Assembly (NCBI GenBank): GCA_964535715.1
Contig: CAZHUO010000001.1
Location: forward strand, 31,696-95,695
DNA from: an uncultured Gammaproteobacteria bacterium
GTDB taxonomy: Bacteria > Patescibacteriota > Patescibacteriia > Buchananbacterales > UBA6539
Direction of reading: 5' to 3'
DNA: 64,000 nt
Positions 17,306 through 42,989 of the stretch are shown here, one piece after another. The translations under genes and the position numbers were made by a program. The notes beneath the pieces are model-generated. The model made no database searches. It was not told where the DNA came from and saw only the letters and a program-made list of their open reading frames with translations. Each line of letters opens with the position of its first letter. Position 1 is the first letter of the stretch.

Positions 17306-17460
17306 GGGTATTAACCGCGGAGAAAGTCGCTGACGCGTCAAAGGAGCGCTTTGGGGGTATTGACACTTGATGGCTCCTCGGTTCGGAAACAAAAAATTGT
17401 TTACTTTTTGTTTCTCTCTCCCTACGCCACTGTCGATCGAGATCGACGTGGCTTACGTCG
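17306..17460 (-). mobile_element. MITE-like structured repeat, copy a (inverted orientation)
   Basis: The reverse complement matches copies b, c and d (...gagagaaacaaaaagtaaacaa..ttttgtttccga.ccgaggagccatcaa..gtcaataccc...ccgcggttaataccc). Flanked by aataaa (17300-17305) and ttaataaaa (17461-17469). Confidence 0.6.
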
Positions 17461-17534
17461 TTAATAAAATATTTATTTGTCGATTATTGATATAAATGTT
17501 AAAATAAATCTAGGTAACTTAGGCCAAAGAATGC

Positions 17535-17611
17535 ATTGAAGCACAAAAACACTAAAGCACCGGAAAAAAATGTTTTGTAATTCTAGTGTTTTAATGCTTT
17601 TGTGCTTCAAT
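17535..17611. promoter_or_regulatory. Large palindrome immediately upstream of the 17622 gene
   Basis: Perfect 14-bp inverted arms attgaagcacaaaa (17535-17548) and ttttgtgcttcaat (17598-17611), with further partial complementarity (acacta/tagtgt) in the spacer. It ends 10 nt before the ATG. Confidence 0.4.
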
Positions 17612-17621
17612 CGATATTAAT

Positions 17622-18794
17622 ATGACAAATAATCAAGTCAAAACCGATGATTTTTTTACTCTACTGAAAGACGAGCGGAAAAACAGCGATCCTTTTGCAA
17701 ACGATGAAATAATTATTCTGGATAAAAAAGGCAATCTCAGCATTTTAAAAGACGGCAAGATTACCGATTTTGGGCCATTAAAAAAGAAAATTGAAAATGA
17801 GCCTAAAAAAGTTGTGGCGGAAATAAAACAAACGCCCCAAATTGACTTTCAGGCGGAGATAGATGATATCATCGAAAAATCCGGCATTCATTTTTCTGAT
17901 CAAGAAACGGAAAGGCGTTTTCGCAGCCTGATTTTATCAAGGCTTAAAGGTGCCAGAAATCAGATTCAAACTCGTGAAATAATGCTTGATTCACCGTCAT
18001 CGGGCGGTTTGGGCTTTAAGCCGGATGAAGCCGAAAGGGTATTATCTGCAATCTCCAAGCAGGCTCAAGATATGGATAAAATGTTCAGGGACGGCATGAG
18101 TTCCGGATATTTTTCCGATTTGCAGCTGCAGGTTGATTCTATTTTAAAAAATGCGGATTCAGAGCTGAAAAAACCAAAGATTGATTTGGCCAAAGCAAAG
18201 GAAACTGATAAAATTGAAGATAAAGGAGGACTTATTTTACCGGCTGAAAATTTAATTAAGCCAAAAGCCAACATTAACATTAAGCCCAAAGAAGACGTAT
18301 CGCCTAAAACAGCTGTTAATAAAGAGAAGAAAAATTATTTAAAACCCGGCGATTTTTTGGCAAAAAAATCTGAGTCCAAGCCATTGTTTAAGGCTCCTGT
18401 TGATTTATCGCCTGTAAATTTTCAATCATTATCAAAGCCCAAGATTGAAGATGTTAAATTTCGCTCAAGGCTTACAGGTCCGATTGAAGAAATCAGGTCA
18501 ATGACTTTAGTTGATTTTAGGAGATTGGGAAAAGACGCCAAAGATGCAATAGGAAAAATTGTGGAAAAAATACAAATTTTGGAGGACGAATCATTTCCAA
18601 AAAGAATTCAGGCAATCAGGGCTTGGAAAGAAAGCCCGGTAAATCAGCTTTATTTGGAACTTGGCGCTGAAAGTATGGAAAAGAAAATGCCGATTTTGGA
18701 AGTAATCAGCCAAAGGCAGAAAAATGGCATTGATACTTTAACCGAACAGGAAATTGAAGAAATCATGGAATTTAATAAAAAATTAAGATACTAG
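17622..18794 (+). CDS. Hypothetical K/E-rich protein (390 aa) inside the T4SS-like cluster
   Basis: Long ORF in the same orientation as, and directly upstream of, the VirB3-like and VirB4 genes. No recognisable motifs. Confidence 0.6.
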   Translation: MTNNQVKTDDFFTLLKDERKNSDPFANDEIIILDKKGNLSILKDGKITDFGPLKKKIENEPKKVVAEIKQTPQIDFQAEIDDIIEKSGIHFSDQETERRFRSLILSRLKGARNQIQTREIMLDSPSSGGLGFKPDEAERVLSAISKQAQDMDKMFRDGMSSGYFSDLQLQVDSILKNADSELKKPKIDLAKAKETDKIEDKGGLILPAENLIKPKANINIKPKEDVSPKTAVNKEKKNYLKPGDFLAKKSESKPLFKAPVDLSPVNFQSLSKPKIEDVKFRSRLTGPIEEIRSMTLVDFRRLGKDAKDAIGKIVEKIQILEDESFPKRIQAIRAWKESPVNQLYLELGAESMEKKMPILEVISQRQKNGIDTLTEQEIEEIMEFNKKLRY

Positions 18795-18820
18795 CCTGAC
18801 AGTTAAATGTTAACTGTTAA

Positions 18821-19294: not shown

Positions 19295-19307
19295 AATATA
19301 AATTTGA

Positions 19308-19988: not shown

Positions 19989-19996
19989 AATAATTT

Positions 19997-21892
19997 ATGG
20001 CAATTTCTCCGCAAGAAATAATTAAAGAGGAAAAACTTAAAGCCCTCAAAGAAAAAGGCCTGATTGATTCTGTAAAAACCAAAAAGGAAGAAGTGGCAGA
20101 TGTAAAAGAGCAAAAAGTTCTGCTCGAAGAGGAAAGAATCTACCGGGAAGGGATAGTTTCAATTAAGGATTTAATTGCTCCATCATCGATGGAAGTTACC
20201 CCGACTTTCATAAAGCTCGGTACCCAGTTTGTCAGGACTATTTTTGCAGTCAGTTATCCGCGCTATATTGCCGTTGGCTGGTTTGCGCCGATTATCAATG
20301 TCAGTGCAGTTTTGGATATAGCAATGTTTTTTTATCCCTTAAGCGCCCATATAATTTTAAAACAATTAAGGAATAAGGTCGGCGCCTTGGAAGCGCAAAT
20401 TATTGCCGACCGGGAAAAAGGAGCGCCGCGCGACCCAATCAGGGAAACAGCTCTCAGAGACATAGAAAAATTAAGAGATGACCTTACTCAGGGAATTGAA
20501 CATTTTTTTCAATTTGGACTTTATGTGACAATATATACGGAATCCAAAGAAAAATTGGAAAATTTAACCAATGATATAGAGGCGATGTTTGGCATGCGTT
20601 TGGTTATTTCAAAAAAAGTTTTATATCAATCCGAGCAGGGATTCAATTCGACTCTGCCTTTGGGCAATGACGAGCTGATGATCAGCTTTAATATGAATTC
20701 TTCGCCAATTGCATCTTCGTTTCCTTTCATATCTTCAGAGCTTACTTCGGATGAAGGAATTTTATACGGGATAAACCGCCACAACAACAGCTTGATTTTA
20801 TTTAATCGATTTTCTTTGCAAAATGCCAATACGGTTGTATTTGCGACATCCGGCGCCGGAAAAAGCTATGCAATTAAGCTTGAAGTTTTAAGGACTATGA
20901 TGTTTGGAACGGACATTATTGTCATTGATCCGGAGCGGGAATACAAGCATCTTTGCGATGCTGTCGGCGGAGCTTATGTCAATATTTCATTAAGTTCTGA
21001 GGCAAAAGTAAATCCTTTTGATCTGCCCAGGGCGATTGGAGAGCAAAAAACTTCCGATGTCATCCGCGGAGCGGTCATATCGCTTAAGGGTTTGATGAGG
21101 CTGATGCTTGGCCAGTTAAGCCATCAGGAAGATTCTTTAGTTGACCGGGCGCTTTTGGAAACTTATGCTAAAAAAGACATTACCGGAGATTCTGACTTGT
21201 CAAAAGTTGAATCGCCGATAATGCAGGATTTTCAAGATATTCTTGAGGGAATGGAAGGCGGATCAGATTTGGCTTTACGGCTTAAAAAATATACAAAAGG
21301 AACTTTTTCGGGTCTTTTTAATAATCCGACAAATGTTGATATGAAAAATCAGCTGGTTATTTTTTCGGTACGCGACCTGGAAGATGAGCTTCGGCCGATT
21401 GCAATTTATAATATTGTCAATTATATTTGGAATGTGGTTCGTTCCGAACTTAAAAAGAGGATTTTAATAATTGATGAGGCATGGTGGCTGATGCAGAATG
21501 AAGATTCGGCAAAATTCATATATGCATTGGTTAAGCGCTGCAGAAAATATTATCTTGGAGTCACCAATATTACTCAGGACGTTAATGACTTTTTGCTTTC
21601 TCCGTACGGCCAGGCAATTGTCAATAATTCGGCATTGCAGCTTCTAATGCGCCAGTCTTCGGCATCTATTGATCTTGTTCAAAAAACTTTTTTACTGACC
21701 GAAGGAGAAAAATATCTGCTTTTGGAATGCGGAGTTGGGGAGGGCATATTTTTTGCCGGTGACAAGCATGCGGCCATTAAAGTAGTTTCTTCTTATACCG
21801 AAGACCAGCTGATTACTTCCGACCCCAGGCAAATTTTGGAAATTGAACAGTCTAAAAGAGAATTTGAAGAATCAAGATCTGAAAGAGAATAG
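19997..21892 (+). CDS. virB4: VirB4/TrbE/CagE-family type IV secretion ATPase
   Basis: Walker A FATSGAGKSY and Walker B LIIDEAWWLM. N-terminal motif RTIFAVSYPRYIAVGWFAPI...SAHI typical of the CagE_TrbE_VirB domain. At 631 aa it is the size of Gram-positive-type VirB4. Confidence 0.85.
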   Translation: MAISPQEIIKEEKLKALKEKGLIDSVKTKKEEVADVKEQKVLLEEERIYREGIVSIKDLIAPSSMEVTPTFIKLGTQFVRTIFAVSYPRYIAVGWFAPIINVSAVLDIAMFFYPLSAHIILKQLRNKVGALEAQIIADREKGAPRDPIRETALRDIEKLRDDLTQGIEHFFQFGLYVTIYTESKEKLENLTNDIEAMFGMRLVISKKVLYQSEQGFNSTLPLGNDELMISFNMNSSPIASSFPFISSELTSDEGILYGINRHNNSLILFNRFSLQNANTVVFATSGAGKSYAIKLEVLRTMMFGTDIIVIDPEREYKHLCDAVGGAYVNISLSSEAKVNPFDLPRAIGEQKTSDVIRGAVISLKGLMRLMLGQLSHQEDSLVDRALLETYAKKDITGDSDLSKVESPIMQDFQDILEGMEGGSDLALRLKKYTKGTFSGLFNNPTNVDMKNQLVIFSVRDLEDELRPIAIYNIVNYIWNVVRSELKKRILIIDEAWWLMQNEDSAKFIYALVKRCRKYYLGVTNITQDVNDFLLSPYGQAIVNNSALQLLMRQSSASIDLVQKTFLLTEGEKYLLLECGVGEGIFFAGDKHAAIKVVSSYTEDQLITSDPRQILEIEQSKREFEESRSERE

Positions 21893-21918
21893 ATATTAAA
21901 AAATTAATAATAAAAAAT

Positions 21919-23487: not shown

Positions 23488-23963
<476 letters not shown>

Positions 23964-23980
23964 TCCCACCCTCTCCGCCA
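23964..23980 (+). repeat. Duplicated tRNA-Ser 3' end (tcccaccctctccgcca), att-like junction between the two element copies
   Basis: Exact 17-nt copy of tRNA positions 23561-23577. A degenerate third copy (atccaccctctc) lies at 24549-24560. Confidence 0.8.
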
Positions 23981-24065
23981 GACTACGCTCCTCACTTTGT
24001 TCGGAGCTTCGTCTGACAGGCTAGATAATATCAACATAGCGCGCTTAATAAATAATTTTTGCGCT

Positions 24066-24499
24066 ATGTACTATGTTTATTTTTTGAAAAGTAAGAAAGC
24101 AGAAAATTGGATATATACAGGTTCAACAGTTAATTTAAAAAAAAGATTTTTAGATCACAGTTTAGGAAAATCATTATCGACAAAACCATATTTACCAGTT
24201 TATTGGCGACGTAGGGCGAGAGAAACAAAAAGTAAACAACTTTTGTTTCCGAGCCGAGGAGCCATCAAAGGGTCAATACCCGAAAGCGCTCCGTCGCCAA
24301 AGCTTTAATTATTCAGCTTTGGAGCGTCGGCGACTTGCTGCGGAAGAAGTGGGCGGAGCTTGCTCCGCGGTTTAATACCCTTTATTTAGCAGCTTATATA
24401 GCAGTTAAAACAGAAAGAAAGGCAAGAGATTTAGAAAAATATTTTAAGGCTGGGTCAGGCAAAGCAATATTAAAAAAAAGAATTTTAACTAACGAAGTG
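24066..24499 (+). pseudogene. GIY-YIG gene, copy 2, disrupted by MITE-like insertion after codon ~46
   Basis: The reading frame is identical to 23663..23917 up to ...KPYLPVY. It then runs into the insert (182 bp including the duplication, not a multiple of 3). Confidence 0.6.
24205..24380 (+). mobile_element. MITE-like structured repeat, copy b, with 6-bp TTTATT target duplication
   Basis: Empty site in copy 1 is ccagTTTATTtagcagc. Filled site in copy 2 is ccagTTTATT[ggcgacgtagggcgag...ggtttaataccc]TTTATTtagcagc. Internal stems ggcgacg/cgtcgcc, gaaacaaaa/ttttgtttc and gcggagc/gctccgc. Confidence 0.75.
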
Positions 24500-24596
24500 T
24501 AAACGTAATCAGTTTTAAGCGACGAAGCCCTTTAAAGGGCGTAGTCGCATCCACCCTCTCAATTTGAATATATATAAAAATAAATAAAATAAATTT

Positions 24597-25094: not shown

Positions 25095-25137
25095 ATCCCA
25101 GGAATTTTTTGATGAAAATCAGATAGTTTACGGTTAT

Positions 25138-25236: not shown

Positions 25237-27306
25237 ATGAAATTTGATTTAAAAACTTCCGTAGATAAAATTACTCGGGTCGGCAAAGCAACTGCCGGCC
25301 GTTTGAGAAAGCTTGATATTGAGACCGTTTTGGATCTCATTTTTTATTATCCTTTCCGCTGGCAGGACTTTAGCCAAATTGTTGATATTTCTGATTTAAA
25401 ACCAACCGATGCAATTACCATTAAAGCCAAAATCCAGTTGATCAACAGCCGCCGAAGCTTTGCCAAAAAGAAAATTTTAACCGAAGCGTTAGTTTCTGAC
25501 AAAACCGGGACCATAAAAGTAATTTGGTTTAATCAGCCATTTTTAACAAAAGTTTTAAAGCCGGGTGATGAAATATATCTTTCAGGCAAAGTTGATTTTG
25601 ACCGCTATTCATTGCAATTTATCAATCCAATATACGAAAAAGTTGCCCTAAGCCAAACGACAACCCATACTGCCAGGCTAGTGCCGATTTATTCTGTGAC
25701 CAGCAACCTTACCGGAAAGCAACTGCGTTTTCTGATTAAGTCTGTAATGCCGGCGATTAATCTGGTAGAAGACTGGCTGCCCAAGGAAATTATAAAAAAT
25801 TACGGCTTGGTTGATTTGCATTTTGCTTTAAGTCAAATCCATTTTCCCAAAAATAAAAAATGCCTAGATCAGGCAGTTAAAAGGCTTAAGTTCGACGAGC
25901 TTTTTTTATTTCAGCTGCAAGTCCAGCTGACCAAAAAAGAAATCAGTCTAAGCCAAGCTAAAAGCATCAAATTCAAGGAAAAAGAAACTAAGGATTTCGT
26001 TTCAGCGCTGCCTTTTAGGCTTACTGATGACCAGCGCAAAGCCGCTTGGCAGATAATTTCTGATGTTCAAAAAAGCAGGCCGATGAATCGGCTTTTGGAA
26101 GGCGAAGTCGGTAGTGGCAAAACTTTAGTGGCGATAATTGCCATGCTTAATACGGCATTAAATTGTAAGCAAGCCGTTTTGCTTGCACCGACCGAAATTT
26201 TAGCCAGCCAACATTACAAAAGCATTTTTGATCTTTTACGGGGTAATGGCATTAAAACTGCGCTTTTGAGCCGTTCTTATCATATGCTGGACGGCAAAGA
26301 AGCCGGAAAAAAAGAAATTTTGAATTGTTTAAAGACCGGTTTAGCAGAAATTATTGTGGGAACACATTCATTAATCCAGGAAAACGTCACATTTAAAGAT
26401 TTGGCATTGGCAATAATAGACGAACAGCATCGGTTCGGCGTAAACCAAAGAAAACATTTGTGCAACCTTTCCGGCAATTTGGAAACTTTTCCTCATTTTC
26501 TTTCAATGACGGCAACGCCGATTCCGCGATCACTTGCTTTGACTCTGTATGGCGATTTGGAAATTTCAATTATCAAGCAGCTGCCCAAGGATCGAAAAAA
26601 AATAATTACTAAAATTATAGATTATTCATCCAAAAAAAAGACTTATGAATTTATGAGAAAACAGATACGGTCGGGCAGGCAGGCTTTTGTAATCTGCCCA
26701 TTGATTGATCCATCGGATAAGCTTGGAGTTAAATCAGTCAGTGAAGAATATGAAAAATTGAGCAAAGAAATATTTCCGGATTTGAAAATTAAAATGCTTC
26801 ACGGCAGGCTGAAATCAGTTGAAAAAGAAAAAATAATGGTTGATTTTTTGGCTGAAAAAAGCGATATTTTGGTTGCAACCTCTGTTATTGAAGTCGGTGT
26901 TGATGTGCCTAATGCTTCAATAATGCTGATAGAGGGTGCTGACCGGTTCGGACTGGCTCAGCTTCATCAGTTCCGCGGCCGTGTCGGGCGTGGCCAGCAC
27001 CAGTCATACTGTTTTTTGTTCAGTGAGAATAAAAATCCAAAGACTTGTCAAAGACTTTTGGCTTTAACTACTGCCAAAGACGGCTTTGAGCTGGCCGAAC
27101 TGGATTTGCAGCTTAGAGGTCCAGGTGAAATATACGGCACAATCCAATCCGGTTTTCCGGAATTCAAAATTGCTAAATTTTCCGATGTTGAGATTATTAA
27201 CCAAGCAAAAGAAGCGGCAGAAAAAATTGTTTTAGAAGGGATAGAAAAGCATTCCTTGCTTAAAGAAAAAATGGCTCAACTGTCAAAGTCAGTCCATTTG
27301 GAATAG
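25237..27306 (+). CDS. recG: ATP-dependent DNA helicase RecG
   Basis: Wedge/OB N-terminal region. Helicase motif I GEVGSGKTLVA, motif II IIDEQHRFGV, motif VI QFRGRVGRG. 689 aa. Confidence 0.9.
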   Translation: MKFDLKTSVDKITRVGKATAGRLRKLDIETVLDLIFYYPFRWQDFSQIVDISDLKPTDAITIKAKIQLINSRRSFAKKKILTEALVSDKTGTIKVIWFNQPFLTKVLKPGDEIYLSGKVDFDRYSLQFINPIYEKVALSQTTTHTARLVPIYSVTSNLTGKQLRFLIKSVMPAINLVEDWLPKEIIKNYGLVDLHFALSQIHFPKNKKCLDQAVKRLKFDELFLFQLQVQLTKKEISLSQAKSIKFKEKETKDFVSALPFRLTDDQRKAAWQIISDVQKSRPMNRLLEGEVGSGKTLVAIIAMLNTALNCKQAVLLAPTEILASQHYKSIFDLLRGNGIKTALLSRSYHMLDGKEAGKKEILNCLKTGLAEIIVGTHSLIQENVTFKDLALAIIDEQHRFGVNQRKHLCNLSGNLETFPHFLSMTATPIPRSLALTLYGDLEISIIKQLPKDRKKIITKIIDYSSKKKTYEFMRKQIRSGRQAFVICPLIDPSDKLGVKSVSEEYEKLSKEIFPDLKIKMLHGRLKSVEKEKIMVDFLAEKSDILVATSVIEVGVDVPNASIMLIEGADRFGLAQLHQFRGRVGRGQHQSYCFLFSENKNPKTCQRLLALTTAKDGFELAELDLQLRGPGEIYGTIQSGFPEFKIAKFSDVEIINQAKEAAEKIVLEGIEKHSLLKEKMAQLSKSVHLE

Positions 27307-27329: not shown

Positions 27330-27387
27330 CTACAAGCTACAAGCTACAAGCTACAAGCTACAAGCTACAAGCTACAAGCTACAAGCT
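27330..27387. repeat. Heptanucleotide microsatellite (CTACAAG)x8
   Basis: Eight perfect tandem units between convergent recG and mpg. The reverse complement CTTGTAG supplies the TAG stop of mpg. Confidence 0.9.
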
Positions 27388-27921
27388 GATATAAAACCGC
27401 CAAAGCTTGTCTTTGTATTCACCGGCATAATCAACATTGACTCGCGGTGCTTTTTTTATATCTGTTGGTTTTATTTTCACACCCCGCTCTTCAATCCAAA
27501 GCTGGCAGCTTTTGCCAAAAGCCGGGCTGGAATTTATTGATTTGTCAATTTTAAAAGCTTTGCAGAGCTTGCCCGGTCCATCAGTTTTAGTTTTTAAGTT
27601 AATTCCTAAAATAGGTTTAACCCCGCGGATCAAAACAGCAGCTGGATAATTTTTGTGTTCAGTCACCACATTAAGGCAATTATACATTCCATAGATTAAA
27701 TAGACATACCAAAAACCTGGTGATCCAAACATTATTTCATTTCTTTTGGTTTTTCCGCGGCTGGCGTGTGAAGCTTTGTCAGATAGTCCAACGTATGCTT
27801 CAGTTTCAGTGATCATGCCAACTATTATTTTTTTACCAATTTTTCTAATTAAAAATTTTCCCAGCAATTGCTGGGCAGTTTTAATAGTTGGCTGATTGTA
27901 AAAATTTTTGTTCAGTTTCAT
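27379..27921 (-). CDS. mpg: DNA-3-methyladenine glycosylase (Mpg/AAG family)
   Basis: ETEAYVGLSDKASHASRGKTKRNEIMFGSPGFWYVYLIYGMYNCLNVV matches the AAG/Mpg fold signature. Confidence 0.85.
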   Translation of the reverse strand: MKLNKNFYNQPTIKTAQQLLGKFLIRKIGKKIIVGMITETEAYVGLSDKASHASRGKTKRNEIMFGSPGFWYVYLIYGMYNCLNVVTEHKNYPAAVLIRGVKPILGINLKTKTDGPGKLCKAFKIDKSINSSPAFGKSCQLWIEERGVKIKPTDIKKAPRVNVDYAGEYKDKLWRFYISL

Positions 27922-30633: not shown

Positions 30634-31908
30634 TTAACCAAATAGTAAAAATCCCAATATTGAGATAACCGATTTTGATATTTCCATTGCCACAATTAAT
30701 ATTACAAAAATCGTAAGAATAATCAGCGCAAAAAATGATCCAATAAAAATGCAGCCTAAAATTTCAAATATTCCCAAGCAGCCTTCAAGATTTTTTTTCG
30801 GATCTGTCGTATCTTCGTTTTCATTATTTGGTCCCAAAGCGCCTAATGACGGAATCCATTCACTGCCGAATTTGGCAAAAAATTGCCCCCAGGGCGTAAA
30901 ATAACGGTTTAAAAAATGAAAAGGAATATAACAATAAAAGCAGCCCCAACTGGGTATTATATTAAGCCAAGCCATTTTTAAAGCGCCGCCCGTTGCTTTG
31001 CTAGTTGCCTGCTGAGCTTTATTTTTCAATTTTTGCACTCTTCCTTTCAGTCCTTTTTCTTCTTTATCCTTTTTTTTATCAGAAGACAATTCTCTTTTTG
31101 TTTCTTGTTCATTCGGCTGATTTTGAGCTTCATCATTTTCTTGCGGCTGCTTTTCTTTTTTGTTTTTATCATCAGTTGGATTTTTTAATGGAGTTTCTTG
31201 TCCGGTTTTGTAGTCTGATTTTTTTTCATTATCGTTTTCTTCTTGGCCACTTGGTTTGTTTTGATCAGCTTTTGGCGATTCTTTTTTTTCTTCCTCATCC
31301 ACTTTTTTTTGTTCTTCTGTCTTTTTTGATTCTTCATCTTTAGCAGTTTCACTTCCTTTTTTCTGATTATTATCCTCTGATTCTTTTTCTTCTGATTTTT
31401 TACTTTGGTTCTGATCGGGCTGGCTTTCAGGATTTTCCTGATTTTGCTGCGTCTGATTTTCCGGTTCATTTGCCCCTGAATCAGGCTGGCTTTGATCCTG
31501 ATTGGGCTGGCTTTCAGGATTTTCCTGATTTTGCTGCGTCTGATTTTCCGGTTCATTTGCCCCTGAATCAGGCTGGCTTTGATCCTGATTAGGCTGGCTT
31601 TCAGGATTTTTTTGATTTTGATTTTTTGATTGGTTTTCTTTTTGGTTGTTTTGGCTCTTAGGGCTTGCTTGGCCGGCATTTTTGCTATCCGGCGATCTTT
31701 TCGATTTTTCCGTTTTTTGTTTTTGATTTTGCGCTCCGACTTTTTTTAAAGCCTCTTGTTCGGCATTTATTTGCTCAATTATAGTTTTTCTTATCTCATC
31801 ATTTAAGGCTCTTTTCAGCTTCTGCTGTTCAGAAGGCGCCATATTGCCTATTTGAGCAATTGGCTTTGATATTTCTTCATCTGATATTTTAATGTCTGGC
31901 TCAGCCAT
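30634..31908 (-). CDS. Low-complexity Q/N/E/K/P-rich disordered protein with a C-terminal TM anchor and a tandem 28-aa repeat
   Basis: NPESQPNQDQSQPDSGANEPENQTQQNQE occurs twice (DNA repeat ~31420-31600). C-terminal hydrophobic FIGSFFALIILTIFVILIVAM. Confidence 0.6.
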   Translation of the reverse strand: MAEPDIKISDEEISKPIAQIGNMAPSEQQKLKRALNDEIRKTIIEQINAEQEALKKVGAQNQKQKTEKSKRSPDSKNAGQASPKSQNNQKENQSKNQNQKNPESQPNQDQSQPDSGANEPENQTQQNQENPESQPNQDQSQPDSGANEPENQTQQNQENPESQPDQNQSKKSEEKESEDNNQKKGSETAKDEESKKTEEQKKVDEEEKKESPKADQNKPSGQEENDNEKKSDYKTGQETPLKNPTDDKNKKEKQPQENDEAQNQPNEQETKRELSSDKKKDKEEKGLKGRVQKLKNKAQQATSKATGGALKMAWLNIIPSWGCFYCYIPFHFLNRYFTPWGQFFAKFGSEWIPSLGALGPNNENEDTTDPKKNLEGCLGIFEILGCIFIGSFFALIILTIFVILIVAMEISKSVISILGFLLFG

Positions 31909-35394: not shown

Positions 35395-35480
35395 ATTTAA
35401 GCAAGATAAGTTTTAAGCAAGATAAGTGAGATAAGTGGTATTAGAAAAATCTTAATATTTAGTTAGATTGTAAACAAATT

Positions 35481-36269: not shown

Positions 36270-36444
36270 AATTTTTTCTCCTTAATTTAGCCGGGCTTTT
36301 GTTTATTGCCCGAAATTAATTTTTATGGTAAAATATATTTAAGAAGTTGCTTTTAACGTTATTATTATATAATTAAAAAGAGGTTTAGTCAAAGAGTTAT
36401 TTAAAGTTATAAATTTTTTTTAACAAAAGTAACATAATTTATAT

Positions 36445-38733
36445 TTGGAAATTAAAATTATGAAAAAGTATTCTAAATCAACCAATTTATTTACTTTTTT
36501 GCCGATTTTAGCGGTGGCAGTTTTTGCCACTTTTTTTGTTGGCGGTATTTGCGTTTTTGCCCAAACCTGGGTTGGTCCGACAGCTGATCCGCCGGGAAAT
36601 AACGTTTCCGGCTTAATTCAAAATAGAAATCCGATTGATAATAATCCCCAAGCGGCCTCAATTGATATTTCCGGCCAGTTAAGGGTTGGAAATAAAGCGG
36701 AAGTTGATAATTTAGTAATGACAAATTCCGGCTGGATTACGGTTGTCGGCGGTTCGATTTGCCTTGGTTCGACTAATCCGGAGGATTGCATAAGTGTCTG
36801 GCCGGGTAGCGGAAATGAGAGCATATGGGTTTTGAAAGATAATAATGACATTTATTATAATGCTGGCAATGTAGGTATTGGCACTAGTAATCCTAGTGCG
36901 GATATTAGGTTGATAGTTGGAGATGGCACTCCCATCGGCAATATTATCGGTATTAGCGGTGCCAGCAGCGAATATATAGGCACCCGCCTGGATGTTTTGG
37001 GTGCGGAAAAATGGTTTTCCGGAATAAATAATCAGGAAGATTATGTAATTAGAAAAGACAGCTCTTCTAATCCTTTTTTAATTGATTATGATACCAGCAA
37101 TGTCGGGATTGGTACAGGTGTGCCTGATAATAAATTAACAGTGAACGGCGACATTAATATTATTAACGGCAATAAATACAGAATTAACAATGAAATTATG
37201 GTTCAAGCTGATACTTCTAAGAAAAACTATTTTTTTGCCAATGCCGGAAATTTAACAATGACAGGTGATTTTAATAGTGTCTTGGGTAGAAATTCTTTGA
37301 AAAATAATGTTGAAGGTTCAGGAAATGTTGCTTTTGGCGAGCAAGCCCTAACTAATACAATTTCCGGTAATTATAATACGGCATTGGGATTTAAATCACT
37401 CTTTAATCATTTGTCCAGTTTTACCAATACGGCCATAGGAAGTTTGTCGGGAGGGAATCTAATTAATGGCAATGGAAACACTTTTTTAGGAACTTATTCA
37501 GGCGGCAATATAGAAGAAGGCAATTATAATACTTTTGTCGGTTATGGTTCCGGCGGCTACCTTTCAAATATACTGAAAGTTGGTTCAAATAATATTTTAA
37601 TTGGCTATAATGCCGGCGCAATAGAAAATATATCTAATTTTTTAAATATTGGAAATACGATATATGGCGATTTATCTGCCAAAAGTGTTGGCATTGGAGT
37701 AGTCAGCCCTTCGCAGAAGCTTGATGTTGGCGGCAGCTTGAAAGTTGCCGAAGATGTTTATTTAGAAAATGATAAAGCTGTGAGAGTTGACGGTTCAGGC
37801 TTAACAAATCTATATATTGGAAATTGGGGAGTGGGAGCATCAGGCGTTAATTTAAATATAAATAACGGCGGCATATTAGCAGCCGGCAGTAACAGCTGGG
37901 ACGGCGGAACTTTAGGAGCGGGTAAAAGAATGATGTGGATACCGGCAAAATCAGCTTTTAGAGCCGGTATGGTCGAAGGTGATGAGTGGAATTCTGTAAA
38001 TATTGGAAATTATAGTTTTGCCGTCGGTTTTAATACAAAAGCATCGGGTGGAAGTTCAGTAGCAATGGGTTCCAAAACAACCGCTTCAGGTCAATCTTCA
38101 TTAGCTTTAGGTACTGATACTATGGCTTCAGGACATTGGTCAATGGCAACTGGTTGGGGAACTCAGGCATTGGGAATCATGTCAACGGCGATGGGTGAAG
38201 GATCAATTGCCTTGGGAGATTTTTCGACGGCAATTGGATTGCATTCAAGAGCGGGAAGATATTCAGTGGCAATAGGAAAAGATACAATAGCTTCAGGCCA
38301 AGGTTCGGTTGCATTTGGTAATACCTCAGAAGCATCAGGCAATTATTCAGTAGCAATTGGTTCTTTAACTACCGCTTCAGGTCAATCTTCATTTGCTTTA
38401 GGTTCGAGTATAGTAGCATCGGGTGGAAGTTCAGTAGCAATGGGGCAAAGAATTAGCGTTTCCGGAAATAATAGTTTTGGAATAGGGCTTGATTATTATT
38501 CAAGGGAATTAACTCAGCCAAATACCATGGCAGTAATGGGCGGAAAAGTCGGAATTGGGATACTTAATCCTGTTGAAGTATTGGAAGTTAACGGAAACAT
38601 TAAGGCAAGCGGGGGCTATTTAGCTGGTAGCCAGCAAGGTTTAACCAAGAATATTACAGTCAAAGGTTCTGACGGGAATAATTGCAGCATTAATGTGGTT
38701 GGCGGAATAATTGTATCCACCACCTGTCCTTAA
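36445..38733 (+). CDS. Secreted repeat protein with YadA-head/Hep_Hag-like or tail-fibre-like Ser/Gly/Ala 14-residue repeats
   Basis: Signal/[27 protein letters not shown]. More than 12 tandem degenerate repeats of the form xxSxAxGxxTxASGxxS (e.g. [34 protein letters not shown]...). Confidence 0.7.
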
Positions 38734-38792
38734 TTAATACTTATTGGAAAATCGGATAATGTGACTTTTAATGAAATTTATTTAAGTATTTA

Positions 38793-40610
38793 ATGGCTAA
38801 AAAACTATTAACAATATTTATTGGCGACGTAAGGCGAGGGAAACAAAAAATATTAAATTTTTTGTTTTCGAGCCGAGGAGCCATCAAAGGGTCAATACCC
38901 GAAAGCGCTCCGTCGCCAAAGCTGCACTTTTTCCAGCTTTGGAGCGTCGGCGACTTGCTGCGGAAGAAGTGGGCGGAGCGCGTCGTCGCCAAAGCGGCTT
39001 TGACGCGTCGGCGACTTGCTCCGCGGTTAATACCCTTTATTCTATCGATAGTTTTAATTGTAAGTTCTTTGATTTTATTAAAAACTAACGCCCAGGAATT
39101 GCCGGCCGCCATGCTTTGCGGAGACGGAATTGTCCAGTCGCCAAACAGCGAAGGTTTTTATGAAAAATGCGATGAAGTCGGAGAAACCAAAAGCTGCACC
39201 AGCCAGTGCGGCCAAAAACTGCTTGGCTGGGCCTGGTCGGACAATATCGGCTGGATTTCTTTAAGTAATGAAAATTGTGATTTTTTGGCTGAAGGGACTT
39301 GCCAAAATCAGAATTATAATTATTATGTCCAGGCTAAAGCCGCTGAAATGGCCGATGGCGAGGTTAAAGGGGAAATTATAGGCTGGGGCTGGTCGGACAA
39401 TATCGGCTGGGTTTGCTTTGGCCAAACTTGCCAAGGTTATTCCGACCTTACTCCGCCTGATGGCTGGCAGACTTATGCAAAGCAGGCAGGCACTAATGAT
39501 CCGTTGGTTTTCGGCTGGGCTTGGAATGAATCAATCGGCTTAATTTCTTTAAATTGCGGCCTTAATTCAATTCCATGCGAGACTTCTGACTATCAGTTAA
39601 AACTTATTAAAAGTGATTTTGGATCTGTCCAACGCCTTACATTGTTAGGCTGGGCCTGGTCTGATATTTCCGGCTGGACTTCTTTTACTCCTGAAATCAG
39701 CGATACTCTGCCTTGGCTTCAGACAAAATATGGCGATATTTATGCCAGAAAGGGAATTTTGGGAAATGAGCCGCCTGATTATGGCTATAATGCCACTTAT
39801 CAGATAATTTCCGGAGACATTATCACTAATTTCCGCTCGGCAAGAGGTGAAGACTGGATTAAACAGGGATTTCAGGAAATCGGTTTTCCCAGGCCTAGCA
39901 CCCGCTATTCCAACGTTTTAGGGAAGATAAATATTTCGGATTTACTCTGTGATCTTTCAGTCCAAAATACCTGCATAAACAAGTTTGGAAAAATTGTTGA
40001 AAAGATTATTGATGAAAACAATTCAGGCAATATTGATCTTTCGGGCAAAATATATTACCGGGACGGTAATTTAGTCATCGACAATCCTATAAATTTTATG
40101 AATGCAGTCGGTTTTGATGACGGAAGCGGGACGATTATCGTTAATGGTGATTTGGTTATAAATAGTGACGTCAAATATGATAACTCCACTAGTCCGATAA
40201 TATTTAAAAATTTAGCTTCCGCCGCCTTTATTGTCCTGGGAGATTTGAAAATCAGCCCAAATGTCTCGAATTTGGCCGGAAATTTCATTATTATCGGCAA
40301 CGGAAATGATTGCAATCCAAATCAGGAAAGTGAAGTGACCGGCTGCGGCCAAATATATACTTGCTGCGTTTTAAGCGGCGAAAGCTGCGCTTTTGACGAA
40401 AGAGTCTGCCAACAGAATCCTTTAATAGTTTCCGGCTTGATGATGGCTAAAAAGTTTTATTTAAAACGTATATTCATCACCGACTCGCAAGATGTTCAGG
40501 GTTCGGAAATCATTATTTACGATGGGAGGCTTTTGGCCAATACGCCTCCGGGGTTGGGCGACTTTGCCAAATCAATGCCGATTTGGCATTTGGATTTTTT
40601 GTCTCAATAA
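38793..40610 (+). CDS. Secreted protein with five GWAWSDNIGW(I/V) repeats. The signal-peptide region is interrupted in frame by MITE-like copy c.
   Basis: After conceptual excision of 38823-39041 the N-terminus reads MAKKLLTIFILSIVLIVSSLILLKTNAQE, a canonical signal peptide. Repeats LLGWAWSDNIGWISL, IIGWGWSDNIGWVCF, VFGWAWNESIGLISL, LLGWAWSDISGWTSF. Confidence 0.65.
   Translation: MAKKLLTIFIGDVRRGKQKILNFLFSSRGAIKGSIPESAPSPKLHFFQLWSVGDLLRKKWAERVVAKAALTRRRLAPRLIPFILSIVLIVSSLILLKTNAQELPAAMLCGDGIVQSPNSEGFYEKCDEVGETKSCTSQCGQKLLGWAWSDNIGWISLSNENCDFLAEGTCQNQNYNYYVQAKAAEMADGEVKGEIIGWGWSDNIGWVCFGQTCQGYSDLTPPDGWQTYAKQAGTNDPLVFGWAWNESIGLISLNCGLNSIPCETSDYQLKLIKSDFGSVQRLTLLGWAWSDISGWTSFTPEISDTLPWLQTKYGDIYARKGILGNEPPDYGYNATYQIISGDIITNFRSARGEDWIKQGFQEIGFPRPSTRYSNVLGKINISDLLCDLSVQNTCINKFGKIVEKIIDENNSGNIDLSGKIYYRDGNLVIDNPINFMNAVGFDDGSGTIIVNGDLVINSDVKYDNSTSPIIFKNLASAAFIVLGDLKISPNVSNLAGNFIIIGNGNDCNPNQESEVTGCGQIYTCCVLSGESCAFDERVCQQNPLIVSGLMMAKKFYLKRIFITDSQDVQGSEIIIYDGRLLANTPPGLGDFAKSMPIWHLDFLSQ
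38823..39035 (+). mobile_element. MITE-like structured repeat, copy c (213 bp), flanked by TTTATT at 38817-38822 and 39036-39041
   Basis: Same family as 24205-24380, with an internal duplication (gcggagcgcgtcgtcgccaaagcggctttgacgcgtcggcgacttgctccgcgg). Insert plus duplicated flank is 219 bp (73 codons), so the host ORF stays in frame. Confidence 0.75.
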
Positions 40611-40625
40611 TGTTAAAATTAAGTT

Positions 40626-41801
40626 ATGCCACTATTTTCAAAATCTAAAAATTATATTGGAATCGATTTTGATTCCAATAGTGTAAAGATAGTTGAATTG
40701 AAAAACGAAGGCGGCCGGCCAAGGCTTGCCACTTATGGCTATATTGACAAAGAAATTAATGGTTTATTAAGCAGTGAAAACAAGGGAGATGCAAACGAAA
40801 TTGGAAAATTAATCAAGCAAGTCGGTAAAAAAGCTAAAGTGACGACAAATCAAGCGGTTGCCGCTCTTCCTTCTTTTTCGGTTTTTAGCTCGATTTTAAG
40901 CCTGCCGGAAATGTCAAAGAAAGATTTAGCTTCAGCAATCAAGTGGGAAGCAAAAAAAGTAATTCCTCTTCCGGCCGAAGAAATGATTTTGGATTGGAAG
41001 GTTCTTGATAGTGATGAAAAAAACAAGGCCGGCGAAAAACCGAAAGAAAAAAAAGAAAGCAATGACGCAAAAAAAGATGAAAGCGTCCAAGAAGATGAAA
41101 ACAGCGAAGATGATGAAAAAGACGATGGATTTTTAAAGATTAGCCAAAAAACTAAAAATAAAAGCACTAAAGTTTTGCTGACAGCGGCGCCAAAAGACCT
41201 GGTTAAGCGTTATATGGAAATTTTTAAAGCCTCAGGTTTCGCCTTATTAAGCCTTGATACTGAACCTTTGGCTTTAATCCGCTCTTTGGCTTCAAATGAC
41301 AAATCGCCTTTAATGATTGTTGATATCGGATCGGTTGTCACAAATATTTCGATTTCGGTCAATGCTGTTCCGATTTTAAGCAGAAGCCTGGATGTCGGCG
41401 GAATGACAATAACAAAATCAATTGCAAACAGCCTAAACGTAAGTTTATCTAGAGCCGAACAGTTTAAATATGATATCGGAATGAACCCGATGCGCGCCGG
41501 CCAGGGAAGTGTTCCAAAAACGATTGAAAACGCCTTGGTGCCGATAATTGATGAGTTAAAATACAGTATAAATTTATATCGAAATCAAGGTAAGAATAAT
41601 ATTGAAAAAATAATTCTAACCGGCGGATCTTCCTTGCTGCTTAATTTGCCAGAGTACTTGTCTAATGTTTTAGGCATTAGATCGTTTTTAGGCGATCCCT
41701 GGGCAAGAGTGATATATCCGGAAGAATTAAGGCCGGTTTTAGATGAAATTGGCTGTCGTTTTTCCATAGCTGTCGGCTTAGCGATGAGAAATATTGAATA
41801 A
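40626..41801 (+). CDS. pilM: Type IV pilus assembly protein PilM (actin-like ATPase fold) with an acidic low-complexity insert
   Basis: YIGIDFDSNSVKIVEL N-terminal motif and overall PilM layout. Insert KNKAGEKPKEKKESNDAKKDESVQEDENSEDDEKDD. Confidence 0.85.
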   Translation: MPLFSKSKNYIGIDFDSNSVKIVELKNEGGRPRLATYGYIDKEINGLLSSENKGDANEIGKLIKQVGKKAKVTTNQAVAALPSFSVFSSILSLPEMSKKDLASAIKWEAKKVIPLPAEEMILDWKVLDSDEKNKAGEKPKEKKESNDAKKDESVQEDENSEDDEKDDGFLKISQKTKNKSTKVLLTAAPKDLVKRYMEIFKASGFALLSLDTEPLALIRSLASNDKSPLMIVDIGSVVTNISISVNAVPILSRSLDVGGMTITKSIANSLNVSLSRAEQFKYDIGMNPMRAGQGSVPKTIENALVPIIDELKYSINLYRNQGKNNIEKIILTGGSSLLLNLPEYLSNVLGIRSFLGDPWARVIYPEELRPVLDEIGCRFSIAVGLAMRNIE

Positions 41802-41816
41802 TTAATATTAAAAATT

Positions 41817-42911
41817 GTGGCAGACATTAATTTATTGCCAGATGACTTGAATGATTCTACAAAGGACGGAAAATTTTTTGTTGGCAGAAAAAATTTAAAC
41901 AATAAAGGATCCGAACCAAGTAATCTTGGCAAAGAGCCTTTTTCGTCTGAATCGAAAAATTCAGTTTTTGGCCGTTTTTTTTCCGGGAGTCCTACGGAAA
42001 AGCCGGCACTTAAATTATCTGAGATGTCAAAGATAAAGAATAATTCAACAGATAACGATTTAATTGAAAATAGCCAAAAAAAGCCGCAAAATTCCGATTT
42101 AAGCGGTTATGAGCTTGAAGAAATAAAAAATAAAAGAAGAGAATTGAAAAATGAAAAAATCGCCATAAGAAATAGCCAGTCGGAAAGAGAAAATTTGTCA
42201 AAAATTTTTAAGCCGAAAGAAGCGGTTGACTTGCAAGTAAAACAAGCCGAGCAGGCCGAATTTAATAAGGCAGGTAAAGATGATACGGCAAAAAAGACAA
42301 AAAAAGAGGCAAAAAAAGACAAGCAAGATTTTTTGGATGTTAATTTGATGCCGCAGGAAGAGACTTTCATGCAGCCAGAGCTTGAGGTGTCAAAGAAACT
42401 TTATTTAAGCGCCATGATAATTTTTTCTTCCATTTTTATTGTAGCTGTTTTATATCTTGGCATTACCCTATATCAGCTCAGCATCGCAAAAAATATATCA
42501 GAAATCGAAAAAGAAATAAATGATTTGGGTCAAAAAATTTCAAGCGTTGAAGGTAATAAAAATGAAGCACTTGCGGTTCAAAGTCATTTTGAGGCGGCAG
42601 ATAAACTCATAAAAAAGCATATATATTGGACTAAATTTTTTGGTTTTTTGGAAAAATACACAAATAATGACGTATATTACACAAGTTTTTCAATGGCCGG
42701 CCAGGATAAGCTGGTGATATCAGCGGTTGGAAAAGACTATCAATCTGTCGCCAAGCAGTTGGTTTCTTTCCAAAAAGCCGGTGATTTTATAAAAAATGTG
42801 AGAATTGATGCCGCTTCTGCCGACATTGTTGATGAAGCGGGAAATTATCAGGTCAACTTTAACATAAACTTGGAATTTCAGCCCGCTGTTTTTTTCGAGG
42901 CAGATAAATAA
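41817..42911 (+). CDS. PilN-like bitopic pilus assembly protein with a long disordered N-terminal region
   Basis: Single TM LYLSAMIIFSSIFIVAVLYLGITLYQL followed by a coiled-coil plus periplasmic domain. Positioned between pilM and pilB. Confidence 0.6.
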   Translation: MADINLLPDDLNDSTKDGKFFVGRKNLNNKGSEPSNLGKEPFSSESKNSVFGRFFSGSPTEKPALKLSEMSKIKNNSTDNDLIENSQKKPQNSDLSGYELEEIKNKRRELKNEKIAIRNSQSERENLSKIFKPKEAVDLQVKQAEQAEFNKAGKDDTAKKTKKEAKKDKQDFLDVNLMPQEETFMQPELEVSKKLYLSAMIIFSSIFIVAVLYLGITLYQLSIAKNISEIEKEINDLGQKISSVEGNKNEALAVQSHFEAADKLIKKHIYWTKFFGFLEKYTNNDVYYTSFSMAGQDKLVISAVGKDYQSVAKQLVSFQKAGDFIKNVRIDAASADIVDEAGNYQVNFNINLEFQPAVFFEADK

Positions 42912-42912
42912 A

Positions 42913-42989
42913 GGGTATTTCACCCTTTGTCGGCTCCTCGTCTCGGAAGCAAAAAATTGTAATTTTTGTTTCACTCGACTTACGTCGCC
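42913..42989 (-). mobile_element. MITE-like repeat, short copy d (77 bp), flanked by aataaa on both sides (42907-42912, 42990-42995)
   Basis: The reverse complement ggcgacgtaagtcgagtgaaacaaaaattacaattttttgcttccgagacgaggagccgacaaagggtgaaataccc matches the 5' module of copies b and c. The insert overlaps the stop codon region of the PilN-like gene. Confidence 0.55.

Follow-up and report, generated by a model that had tools for sequence, protein, structure and literature searches.

Is a short, structured repeat that recurs within 64 kb of DNA a mobile element or a conserved fixture of its host genome and, if mobile, by what route does it move? Exactly four copies occur in the window (the whole 64-kb stretch analysed here), where the original prediction had placed them except that copy a ends at 17462 rather than 17460; a covariance-model search of the window recovered none further. 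The motif CGAGGAGCCNNCAAN{4,8}AATACCC matched the four copy sites only (shuffles expected 0), and AATACCCTTTATT gave four matches against 0.26 expected. All four copies carry TTTATT on both sides, as originally claimed, against a background in the window of 231 matches in 128,000 strand positions. Copy a (minus strand; element 17306-17462, or 17300..17468 with TTTATT at 17463-17468 and 17300-17305) was identified by motif searches and a covariance-model score of 57.5 bits; it has a variant 5′ end, AACGACGTA followed by a ~31-nt insert ahead of GGCGTAGGG, and it lies antisense to both metK (16120..17295) on one side and an ORF (17622..18794) on the other. Copy b (plus strand, 77.6 bits) spans 24199..24386, with a 176-nt element (24205-24380) between TTTATT motifs at 24199-24204 and 24381-24386. 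Copy c (plus strand, 74.1 bits) spans 38817..39041, and within its 213-nt element (38823-39035) the GACGCGTCGGCGACTTGCT module is duplicated. Copy d is the minimal form, of 77 nt (minus strand; element 42913-42989, or 42907..42995 with both TTTATT; 67.9 bits), antisense to both a pilN-like gene (41817..42911) and a pilO-like gene whose start ATG lies on its other side. The TAA stop of the pilN-like gene overlaps the AATAAA of copy d; AATAAA includes a TAA, which is why intergenic copies often lie on stop codons.

Copy b provides a genuine pair of empty and filled sites, as had been proposed. It lies in the second unit of a 403-bp GIY-YIG tandem repeat, in which 23561-23801 matches 23964-24204 at 100% and 23796-23975 matches 24381-24560 at 98%. 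The first, intact unit (23561-23963) contains a single TTTATT (23796..23801, plus strand), reads ccagTTTATTtagc and aligns at that motif with both TTTATT copies of the second unit, which reads ccagTTTATT, the element, then TTTATTtagc and is broken out of frame (182 nt). The host gene of copy c (38793..40610, plus strand) encodes a secreted cysteine-rich repeat protein; the copy sits in its signal peptide, between MAKKLLTIFI and LSIVLIVSS, and, as described earlier, leaves the ORF open: its 213 nt plus 6 make 219 nt, or 73 codons, in frame and stop-free. Homologues of this protein are mostly 513–560 aa, with a few longer ones aligning over no more of the query; each of the 15 N-termini that were read lacks the 73-aa insert and starts with an ordinary signal peptide of 25–30 aa, and the remaining listed homologues cover ≤89% of the query. 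Breaks in same-strain assemblies fall inside copy c.

Comparison with a 66%-identity relative, GCA_964497245.1, revealed reciprocal presence and absence at syntenic sites: copies c and d are missing from the relative, which carries an element of its own at a site that is empty in the window. That element, short and complete, lies between LemA and YadA-head genes (L061, 6287-6374), and the orthologous empty site in the window (36350..36366, plus strand) has only cttttaacgttatt. Two copies at unrelated loci of one metagenome (L059a and L060) are identical at 152 of 155 positions, with identity stopping just outside TTTATT on both sides. Insertions occur in either orientation, most in intergenic DNA and others in genes; most gene insertions that survive keep the reading frame, contain no stop and lie in the N-terminal signal or leader region. 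Syntenic presence and absence, insert-free homologue N-termini, the L059a/L060 identity and the mostly in-frame gene insertions together support the original reading of a mobile element family rather than a syntenic conserved gene. Strong sequence conservation of the core across distant Patescibacteria would suit a regulatory or non-coding RNA locus, or part of a larger gene, passed on vertically without changing position, but the empty and filled pair, the reciprocal differences from the relative, the insert-free N-termini, the unrelated host contexts and the near-identical copies at unrelated loci make that explanation scarcely credible.

The repeats are a family of small non-autonomous mobile elements across Patescibacteria (CPR). 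Beyond the window, about 30 further copies were found on Patescibacteria contigs: one came from a Patescibacteria MAG in GTDB, a pattern search that specified no flank gave about 25 on contigs from groundwater metagenomes, and translated-element and homologue look-ups gave five. The pattern partly fixed GGCGACGTA and CGAGGAGCC..CAA, such that invariance of these among the metagenome matches is partly built in. No description of such elements emerged from literature searches, and Rfam 15 returned no family match, including to any self-cleaving ribozyme or intron; this family of ~75–220 base, hairpin-forming mobile DNA elements, which insert at TTTAT-like sites, is apparently undescribed. The element, only 77 nt in its minimal form, has no coding capacity of its own. 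No transposase, Y1/HUH protein, TnpB, reverse transcriptase or recombinase was found among the 20 window ORFs tested, nor did any of these recur among 117 neighbour ORFs of 22 loci; the neighbours are housekeeping genes. The prediction of a structured, non-autonomous repeat family without terminal inverted repeats was borne out; the PATE label that it suggested is not established, since neither TnpA nor TnpB was found in either set.

Read on the strand starting GGCGACG, with junctions marked ^, the left part of the element is (T)TTAY^T-GGCGACGUAGAGCGAGnG-(H1, a variable hairpin)-CCGAGCCGAGGAGCC-ARC-AAAGGnu, and the right part continues from AAAGGnu through 0 to ~140 nt of optional hairpins, the last often a CTTG-loop hairpin (24353-24368 in copy b), to anCCUUUAY^N. 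Domain I (core 17367-17431 in copy a; 24205-24268 in b; 38823-38887 in c; 42927-42989 in d) is a single long, irregular, conserved hairpin that includes H1 (17386-17414, 24222-24249 and 38840-38869 in copies a, b and c) and whose Watson–Crick pairs covary. In domain I, 93.7% of cells are paired and 14 of 20 pairs have changed on both sides (0 of 500 shuffles as high; slid controls 27–54% paired), and with flank and stem II added the values are 91.3% and 10 of 18 (again 0 of 500 shuffles), although these counts are not independent events because the copies are related. The G1-C70 pair, for instance, becomes A1-U70 in L059/L060. Two of the stems in the original prediction, gaaacaaaa/ttttgtttc (H1) and gcggagc/gctccgc (the CTTG-loop hairpin), are conserved and covary family-wide, but ggcgacg/cgtcgcc is confined to window copies b and c; in the family, bases G1-C3 pair with the GCC of GGAGCC.

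The basal helix of domain I extends into the flank, where bases −1 and −2 pair with nt 71 and nt 72, respectively, and change in a compensatory way: the −2:72 pair is UA in 17 copies, CG in seven and UG in one, A72 never facing C and G72 facing C or T. The second hairpin is variable, and its AAA/TTT base holds the 3′ TTTAY end. This stem II (AAAGGGT 24267-24273 with ACCCTTT 24377-24383 in copy b; 38896-38902 with 39032-39038 in c; 42910-42928 in d) takes the forms AAAGGGU/ACCCUUU, AAAGGUU/AACCUUU, AAGGGG/CCCCUU, AAACCGGC/GCCGGUUU and AAAUCC/GGGUUU; as it always opens with AAA/UUU, the element's own structure takes in the first three bases of the right TTTAY. One A.C excepted, segment A71-R72-C73-A74-A75-A76 complements TTTAYT at the left junction, and its AAA is also the partner of the right-end TTT. 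Terminal inverted repeats are lacking, the 5′ (T)GGCGACG and 3′ ..ANCC having only GG in common, and the sequences of H1 on the left and of stem II and the CTTG hairpin on the right are unrelated.

A rival reading is that RNA is the functional form: a structured non-coding RNA module that either spreads through RNA, by reverse splicing or retro-mobility, or is removed or skipped at the RNA level, in an intron-like way or by translational bypass between the matched TTTATT take-off and landing sites. Invariant junction bases beside covarying stems recall ribozymes and riboswitches; the invariant mismatches of domain I are compatible with two tandem G.A pairs and with a GUA/GA loop, as in a bulged-G motif; loops of CUUG and GNRA type occur; and pairing of the flank with an internal segment resembles a P1 or IBS-EBS helix. 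Exact removal would also restore the frame of the two sense insertions that break it, in GIY-YIG unit 2 and the TauE gene of L060. We nevertheless consider an RNA route improbable. Besides the lack of any Rfam match, and of a reverse transcriptase among the ORFs and neighbours searched, 77 nt is too small for a group I/II core and the ends lack the corresponding splice-site signatures. About 40% of copies are antisense to every neighbouring gene, and the L042 element lies antisense inside a NUDIX gene, yet is read through in frame. In-ORF copies that are stop-free and a multiple of three in length are a sign of translation through the insert, not of its removal. Counts of G.U versus A.C cells (14 versus 12; 16 versus 10) single out neither strand; RNA and DNA are indistinguishable.

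The junctions bear on how DNA might move. The original prediction offered a 6-bp target duplication or IS200/IS605-style insertion, and the family-wide data lean against plain duplication. The left pentamer drifts at its first bases (CTTAT, GTTAT, CCTAT), whereas the right stays TTTAY and base-paired; in L035, with stem II AAGGGG/CCCCTT, the right TTT position covaries. Nearly all copies have T directly ahead of GGCGACG, and this base covaries with nt 71, whereas the one following the right TTTAY varies freely, an asymmetry unexpected of duplication. The Y of left and right motifs tends to agree, with TTTAC/TTTAC in L028 and L056 and C at both positions in L034, L049 and L026. A MITE moved by cut-and-paste or copy-paste, through a DDE transposase encoded elsewhere that makes staggered cuts at TTTAT(T) and leaves a true 5–6 bp duplication, with hairpins incidental or regulatory, would account for this agreement, for one TTTATT in the empty site and two in the filled, and for the L059a/L060 identity taking in both motifs. 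The size and the AT-rich target would be usual for a MITE, and dispersion, lack of coding capacity, stable structure and occasional in-frame insertions are shared with bacterial MITEs (Correia/NEMIS, ERIC, RUP, BOX). These, however, have terminal inverted repeats and duplications matching a parent IS, and here there is neither an inverted repeat nor a recognisable parent; with the junction asymmetries, and no transposase in the ORFs and neighbours searched, a MITE seems unlikely.

Somewhat less probable still is site-specific recombination, in which the element, excised as a circle and perhaps folded as a single strand in the way of integron attC or CTX phage attP, recombines with TTTAY sites by means of a tyrosine or other recombinase, with the 5–6 bp TTTAY(T) as the common crossover core and hence found on both sides. 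The same short core at both junctions, the right one within a hairpin stem like R′ in attC, fits this scheme, as do agreement of the two Y in most copies and hairpins kept while stem sequence varies. Against it, attC is conserved in structure and recombines at attI/attC, whereas here domain I is conserved in sequence and targets are many, dispersed and of low information (TTAY), which is unusual for tyrosine recombinases; a 77-nt circle would be very small, and no integrase or other recombinase gene was seen among the window ORFs tested or near the 22 loci.

Our preferred, if tentative, explanation is a non-autonomous Patescibacteria family mobilised in trans as a single strand in the manner of IS200/IS605, without true duplication. 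The moving form would be a folded single strand, most probably DNA, and a putative trans-encoded strand transferase of HUH/Y1 type (‘peel and paste’) would cut and join it 3′ of TTAY at each junction; ARCAAA pairing with the target may help target choice. The right TTTAY would then be part of the element, nothing being truly duplicated, and the excised RE-LE junction would read ..CCTTTAY^TGGCGACG..; the same motif at right end and target is also what a 5–6 bp duplication or a recombinase core would give. Like PATEs and IS608, these tiny, non-coding elements have subterminal hairpins and no terminal inverted repeats, and must be mobilised in trans. IS608 targets TTAC, and its left junction lies 19 nt from the hairpin foot (PMC3201880); here the T-rich motif is TTAY, the distance to the foot of H1 is 18 nt, and internal bases likewise pair with junction motifs. 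Unlike in IS608, the two end hairpins do not resemble each other in sequence, the right motif equals the target (TTAY-type, as against TCAA versus TTAC) and sits in or next to a stem rather than 10 nt away, and the partner of the left junction is 3′ of the hairpin, not 5′. The core is also conserved across very distant hosts, unlike that of IS200/IS605 elements. The mixed orientation relative to neighbouring genes (about 15 copies the same way, 12 the other), which differs from the lagging-strand bias of IS200/IS605, also counts against an IS200/IS605-like view.

REP/BIME repeats, mobilised by RAYT (TnpA-REP) Y1 enzymes, are likewise short and structured and carry a conserved GTAG ahead of a hairpin, and HUH-type single-strand recognition is proposed for both; here, GTAG lies 8–9 nt from the hairpin inside a longer helix, and the elements are much larger, two-domain and found inside ORFs, with no inverted pairs and no RAYT seen. 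Rickettsia RPEs, also short hairpin repeats without a transposase, recur in frame and stop-free inside protein genes, adding a peptide to the host protein (PMC10969869), as do copy c, L014, L042 and the L026 pilins. They differ in their unrelated sequence and host phylum, and the family described here has a defined target motif, a defined empty site, mostly intergenic copies and a strong bias to N-terminal signal or leader regions.

The four copies of the repeat in the window, at 17306-17462 (-) (copy a), 24205-24380 (+) (copy b), 38823-39035 (+) (copy c) and 42913-42989 (-) (copy d), form one family, whose alignment gives the common order TTTATT, GGCGACGTA, GAAACAAAA-loop-TTTTGTTTC, CGAGGAGCC..CAA, AATACCC and TTTATT, with AACGACGTA in place of GGCGACGTA at the 5' end of copy a. 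Sequence reading and alignment placed copies b, c and d where the original prediction had put them, and alignment of the four copies extended the end of copy a to 17462. A motif free of the flanks matched the window exactly four times, at copies a-d, and never in shuffles; AATACCCTTTATT also had four window matches against 0.26 expected, and a repeat finder paired the same copies (D10, D15, D18, I1-I7). R1, a covariance model built on the first ~64 nt, found just these four in the window and no fifth. TTTATT is frequent in this AT-rich window (231 sites), yet it is present at 8/8 copy junctions, far above chance, so the claim that it flanks every copy holds. The long copies (24267-24380, 38896-39035 and 17306-17372) hold AATACCC twice: the first closes a local GGGT/ACCC mini-hairpin, the same as the end of the short form, and an extra module placed directly ahead of TTTAT ends in the same AATACCC, so that the long forms look like the short form with a tail added by capture or duplication. 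An additional internal duplication is present in copy c (38936-38962 = 38997-39023).

Folding copy by copy and comparing pairs across copies, as had been suggested for this repeat, gave a common two-domain structure with covarying pairs. Domain I is a single long irregular hairpin capped by H1, a cap whose sequence changes between genomes while its pairing is retained. In the numbering of alignment A2 (23 copies), G1G2C3 pairs with the GCC of GGAGCC, C6 with G65, and G10, G12, C13, G16 and G18 with the CCGAGCC strand; standard pairs make up 93.7% of cells, 14/20 pairs have changed on both sides, none of 500 shuffles reached as high a value and slid registers gave 27-54%. Single compensatory changes can be picked out by eye: G12-C61 to U-A in window copy d, and, at loci outside the window, C13-G60 to U-A in L046 and G1-C70 to A-U in L059/L060. 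The mismatches G4A5 against G66A67, G14A15 against G58A59 and G7U8A9 against G63A64 are fixed and, since these positions never vary, lie beyond the support of covariation. By comparison with motifs familiar from RNA and DNA, these mismatches may be interpreted as a pair of tandem sheared G.A motifs plus a bulged-G (loop-E-like) module. The counts of G.U and A.C cells are about equal and discriminate neither the folded strand nor RNA from DNA. Inspected by eye, the conserved strands fitted no HDV-like, hammerhead, K-turn or integron R'/R'' reading.

Stem II follows a linker of 2-3 nt and always begins with AAA paired to the TTT of the terminal TTTAY; its onward pairs covary freely (GGGU/ACCC, GGUU/AACC, GGGG/CCCC, CCGGC/GCCGG, UCC/GGG). 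Its loop has room for optional hairpins, which span 0 to ~140 nt, and the minimal form, exemplified by window copy d, is 77 nt long. The last of these hairpins is often CYCGNGG-CTTG-CCNCGRG, which in the window copies is the gcggagc/gctccgc stem that the original prediction had assigned to the core; it is a hairpin of the family, often present and optional, and the ggcgacg/cgtcgcc stem proposed alongside it is specific to the window and no feature of the family. The reported lack of terminal inverted repeats was borne out, the 5' end (T)GGCGACGTAG and the reverse complement of the 3' end (GGGTAT.. or GGTTCC..) sharing only GG; the element differs from a classical MITE in this respect and in that no parent IS was found.

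Outside the window, a first scan of GTDB species representatives (the source genome not included) with an AATACCC-specific pattern gave one true locus among 11, a copy (L009) between rpoB and rpoC in a Patescibacteria MAG. A metagenome scan with GGCGACGTAN{30,55}CGAGGAGCCNNCAA, the flanks left unspecified on purpose, returned 38 loci from groundwater-type samples, 28 of them true and 21 distinct, and R1 found further copies on the metagenome contigs. Comparison of the translated element with proteins added loci, with the variant 5' end TTTATT|AGCGACGTAG; a profile of the translated element had only seven matches among 5.8 billion proteins, which supplied new loci and no census. About 34 copies were examined overall. 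Among the metagenome matches, the invariance of the two pattern segments is partly built in by the scan pattern; copies found independently of that pattern (L026a-c, L032b, L056, L059a/b, L060, L061 and window copy a) keep both segments, with informative changes. The hosts are Patescibacteria, judged by the source names of homologues and of contigs L009 and L056, and viral contigs gave one chance match in the first scan and zero in the next. With Rfam 15, only tRNAs rose above gathering thresholds in the window, and long and short copies at E<=10 drew chance snoRNA or miRNA matches only. Literature searches by exact sequence and on CPR MITE, REP and TnpB topics left the core sequence unmatched and returned no paper on CPR small repeats.

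Five independent lines of evidence support the mobility of the element. Within the window, the small GIY-YIG gene beside tRNA-Ser lies in a 403-bp tandem duplication (98-100% identical; D1, D3), in which unit 1, the empty site, reads ccagTTTATTtagc and unit 2, the filled site, reads ccagTTTATT[176 nt]TTTATTtagc; the 'natural control' seen here by the original prediction is real. Two copies from one metagenome, L059a and L060, are identical at 152/155 positions, with identity ending exactly outside TTTATT on each side, and L060 interrupts a TauE gene, which regains its frame once the 155 nt are taken out. Copy c with its flank occupies, as had been noted, 219 nt or 73 stop-free codons between MAKKLLTIFI and LSIVLIVSSLILL of ORF 38793..40610, which stays open. 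A homologue search with this ORF listed 119 relatives (Falkowbacteria, Buchananbacteria and other Patescibacteria), none of which aligns over >89% of the query, and the 73-aa insert is absent from 15/15 homologue N-termini read, which have ordinary signal peptides of 25-30 aa. Comparison of orthologous loci revealed reciprocal presence and absence between the window and its relative GCA_964497245.1 (66% identity for the host protein): the pilN-pilO spacer of the relative reads TAAattaatATG, lacking the element where the window has copy d, and the relative has a complete short element, missing from the window, between the genes for LemA and the YadA-head protein. The relative also bears a 14-nt solo 3' end, TTAATACCCTTTAT (L061 9975-9989), overlapping the YadA-head stop 11 nt upstream of the orthologous start codon (P0009), at a spot that reads TTAATTAATACTTATT (38730-38745) in the window; this solo end may be either an old remnant or a footprint. 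In every independent assembly of the same strain the sequence stops inside copy c, as repeats make assemblers break.

At the left junction of the 34 copies, the hexamer before GGCGACG is TTTATT in 20 and a close variant in the rest (CTTATT, GTTATT, CCTATT, TTTACT, CTTACT and others), TTTATT stands on both sides in 20/34, the left and right motifs of the other copies differing at 1-3 positions, and the left flank reads (T)TTAY with few exceptions. Immediately 5' of G1, nearly all copies have a T, which pairs with nt 71 (A); L026b has G opposite C at this place and L026c has C opposite G. Base -2 pairs with nt 72 (T-A 17, C-G 7, T.G 1; alignment A6), where A72 is never opposite C and G72 is opposite C or T, matching wobble rules. 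At the right end, TTTAY has its first bases locked in stem II and its next base variable, and the copies with TTTAC there are those with C at -2 and G at 72. Given this junction pairing and right-end pattern, the simplest reading is a target (T)TTAY|N and an element T-GGCG...CCTTTAY. The string A71-R72-C73-A74-A75-A76 is complementary to TTTAYT except for one A.C, and on the modelled pairing its partner can be either the left junction or, by way of AAA, the 3' end of the element itself.

A true duplication of 5-6 bp by a DDE enzyme fits much of the same evidence: because the right end bears the same motif as the target, the single empty/filled pair is compatible with such a duplication and with none alike, and it is the asymmetry of the junctions across the family that leans towards no duplication. 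Much of the evidence is likewise accommodated by a recombinase acting on a TTTAY core; in Pfam comparisons, transposases, reverse transcriptases and recombinases were not seen in the 20 window ORFs tested and none recurred among 117 neighbour ORFs. The cognate transposase that had been suggested as a target of genome-wide searching was sought in these two sets of ORFs, where Y1 TnpA and TnpB were both absent.

The element is non-coding, structured and devoid of terminal inverted repeats, inserts at TTAY-like sites and has internal bases that covary with the junction, placing the family among the small non-autonomous bacterial repeats. The element is inferred to be moved in trans as a folded single strand, for which the nearest known logic is the 'peel and paste' of IS200/IS605. 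Members of that family insert 3' of a specific tetra- or pentanucleotide, with target bases neither gained nor lost. Their Y1 HUH enzyme cuts 3' of a tetranucleotide read by pairing to element bases, and the two ends have similar imperfect subterminal palindromes that one TnpA dimer binds, the cuts lying 19 nt 5' of the left hairpin foot and, on the right, 10 nt 3' of the hairpin (PMC3201880). The likenesses are the missing terminal inverted repeats and a left spacing from H1 that, at 18 nt, would correspond to the 19 nt of peel and paste. The differences are that H1 and the stem II/CTTG hairpin are unrelated in sequence, that the right motif overlaps its stem (0-2 nt), a hairpin 10 nt from the end occurring only in the AACC subfamily, that the right site equals the target and that no orientation bias was seen here. 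The guide-like pairing (-2 with nt 72 and -1 with nt 71, which covary, and AAA(74-76) with the right-end TTT) has a geometry unlike GL/GR, and membership of the element in IS200/IS605 is not established. It is conceivable, though we consider it improbable, that the family is the visible part of an undescribed mobility system specific to Patescibacteria, in which domain I, a deeply conserved hairpin with non-canonical pairs, serves as a scaffold for a strand transferase and the short internal A-R-C-A-A-A recognises by base pairing the 3' end of the element as well as the TTTAY of the target, the scaffold perhaps being RNA; if so, the element would amount to a minimal insertion module guided by nucleic acid, tolerating and decorating signal peptides and the leaders of pilins.

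The element was also compared with other known systems. In REP/RAYT, GTAG stands immediately 5' of a short palindrome, and the repeats are extragenic with an adjacent RAYT gene; the GTAG of the element is at nt 7-10, 8 nt ahead of H1, copies lie inside ORFs and a Y1 gene was not seen among neighbour ORFs. Group I and II introns have a catalytic core, splice-site signatures (omega-G; GUGYG..AY) and a sense orientation; both were rejected on the 77-nt minimal form, on permitted boundaries of which none ends in G or starts with GUGYG, and on antisense and intergenic copies. TIGR/Tas systems were considered because they are found in parasitic bacteria; they comprise dual repeats of 8-12 nt, arrayed in tandem with spacers of 9 nt beside a Nop-domain gene (PMC12045711), and were set aside as copies of the element are single and dispersed, with no arrays.

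The neighbours of the copies are housekeeping genes, some of them core genes (for example rpoB/rpoC, metK and those for aminoacyl-tRNA synthetases), and no protein family recurs among the 117 neighbour ORFs. Orientation relative to adjoining genes is mixed, without bias, and several copies abut the stops of opposite-strand genes because AATAAA contains TAA. Copies surviving within genes are mostly in frame, stop-free and N-terminal: in frame are copy c in its signal peptide, a 132-nt insert in a ZnuA signal peptide (L014), a 177-nt antisense insert near the start of a NUDIX protein (L042) and inserts in the leaders of three type IV pilin-like genes (L026), in which the 3' GGGTTTAC of the element at the same time encodes the G-F-T of the motif for prepilin cleavage. 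The three L026 genes are neighbours (539-4852; ..GDVER..SRGA..G-F-T-L-I-E); a duplicated (E)AGFT segment flanks the insert on both sides, an extra partial 5' fragment lies at 2797-2822, and the stems still covary inside the ORFs. Another copy (L017) replaces the C-terminal tail of MnmA, and frame is broken in GIY-YIG unit 2 and in the TauE gene. In-frame, stop-free insertion into unrelated genes (copy c, L014, L042 and three times in L026) is shared with the Rickettsia palindromic elements (PMC10969869), from which the element differs in having Patescibacteria as hosts. Four of the six reading frames are frequently open, and stop-free frames number 53/174 against 30.7 +/- 4.8 in shuffles, an excess that is suggestive only, because the copies are related rather than independent. 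Insert lengths are multiples of three in 11/29 cases, no different from chance, so it is only the survivors within ORFs that are 3n. An RNA route of movement is the least likely of the explanations, since antisense and intergenic copies are common, copies in ORFs look translated through, and ribozyme, intron and RT signals are lacking.

The tiny genomes of Patescibacteria are regarded as poor in mobile DNA. What is unusual about this family is a non-canonically paired core conserved across distant hosts, guide-like pairing at the junction, and recurrent, tolerated insertion in signal and leader peptides. It breaks assemblies and reshapes the N-termini of secreted proteins and pilins; the covariation-backed pairing between an internal segment and the junction is a testable handle on how an element without a transposase chooses TTAY, and the family is a lead towards a putative mobilising enzyme. 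In practice, these repeats can be annotated with the covariance model, which can also flag repeat-caused contig breaks in CPR MAGs.

Several other repeats occur in the window. The tandem unit at 23488-24562, at the 3' end of tRNA-Ser(GCT), carries an 84-aa GIY-YIG gene, and the start of each unit repeats the 3' end of the tRNA, tcccaccctctccgcca (23561 and 23964; a third partial copy at ~24548-24562), so that the unit looks like a small integrative element whose attachment site is the tRNA end. In the region 15312-16079, a third small GIY-YIG ORF (15312-15617; Pfam E=6e-17) is followed downstream by a different repeat family, with 3-4 copies of a ~66-135 nt unit (D2, D5) that holds the hairpin ATCCTGAA-TTCA-TTTCAGGAT, and a contig of a same-strain assembly (L055) ends at this repeat. 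A perfect (CTACAAG)n heptanucleotide tandem repeat lies at 27330-27385, between recG (25237..27306) and a methylpurine glycosylase gene (27379..27921), and an 87-nt unit (29 codons) is repeated in tandem two and a half times at 31403-31620 within ORF 30634..31908(-), which had no Pfam match. Short repeats of the TAAGCAAGATAAG type stand as inverted copies at two distant intergenic spots, 35396-35436 and 57494-57581 (I5, I10, I23). The window opens with a single 3394-aa ORF (47-10231). After it come a TrbL-like protein of 1140 aa and other genes of type IV secretion-like character, with a TraG P-loop ATPase at 19997..21892, and this region may be a conjugation- or competence-like island.
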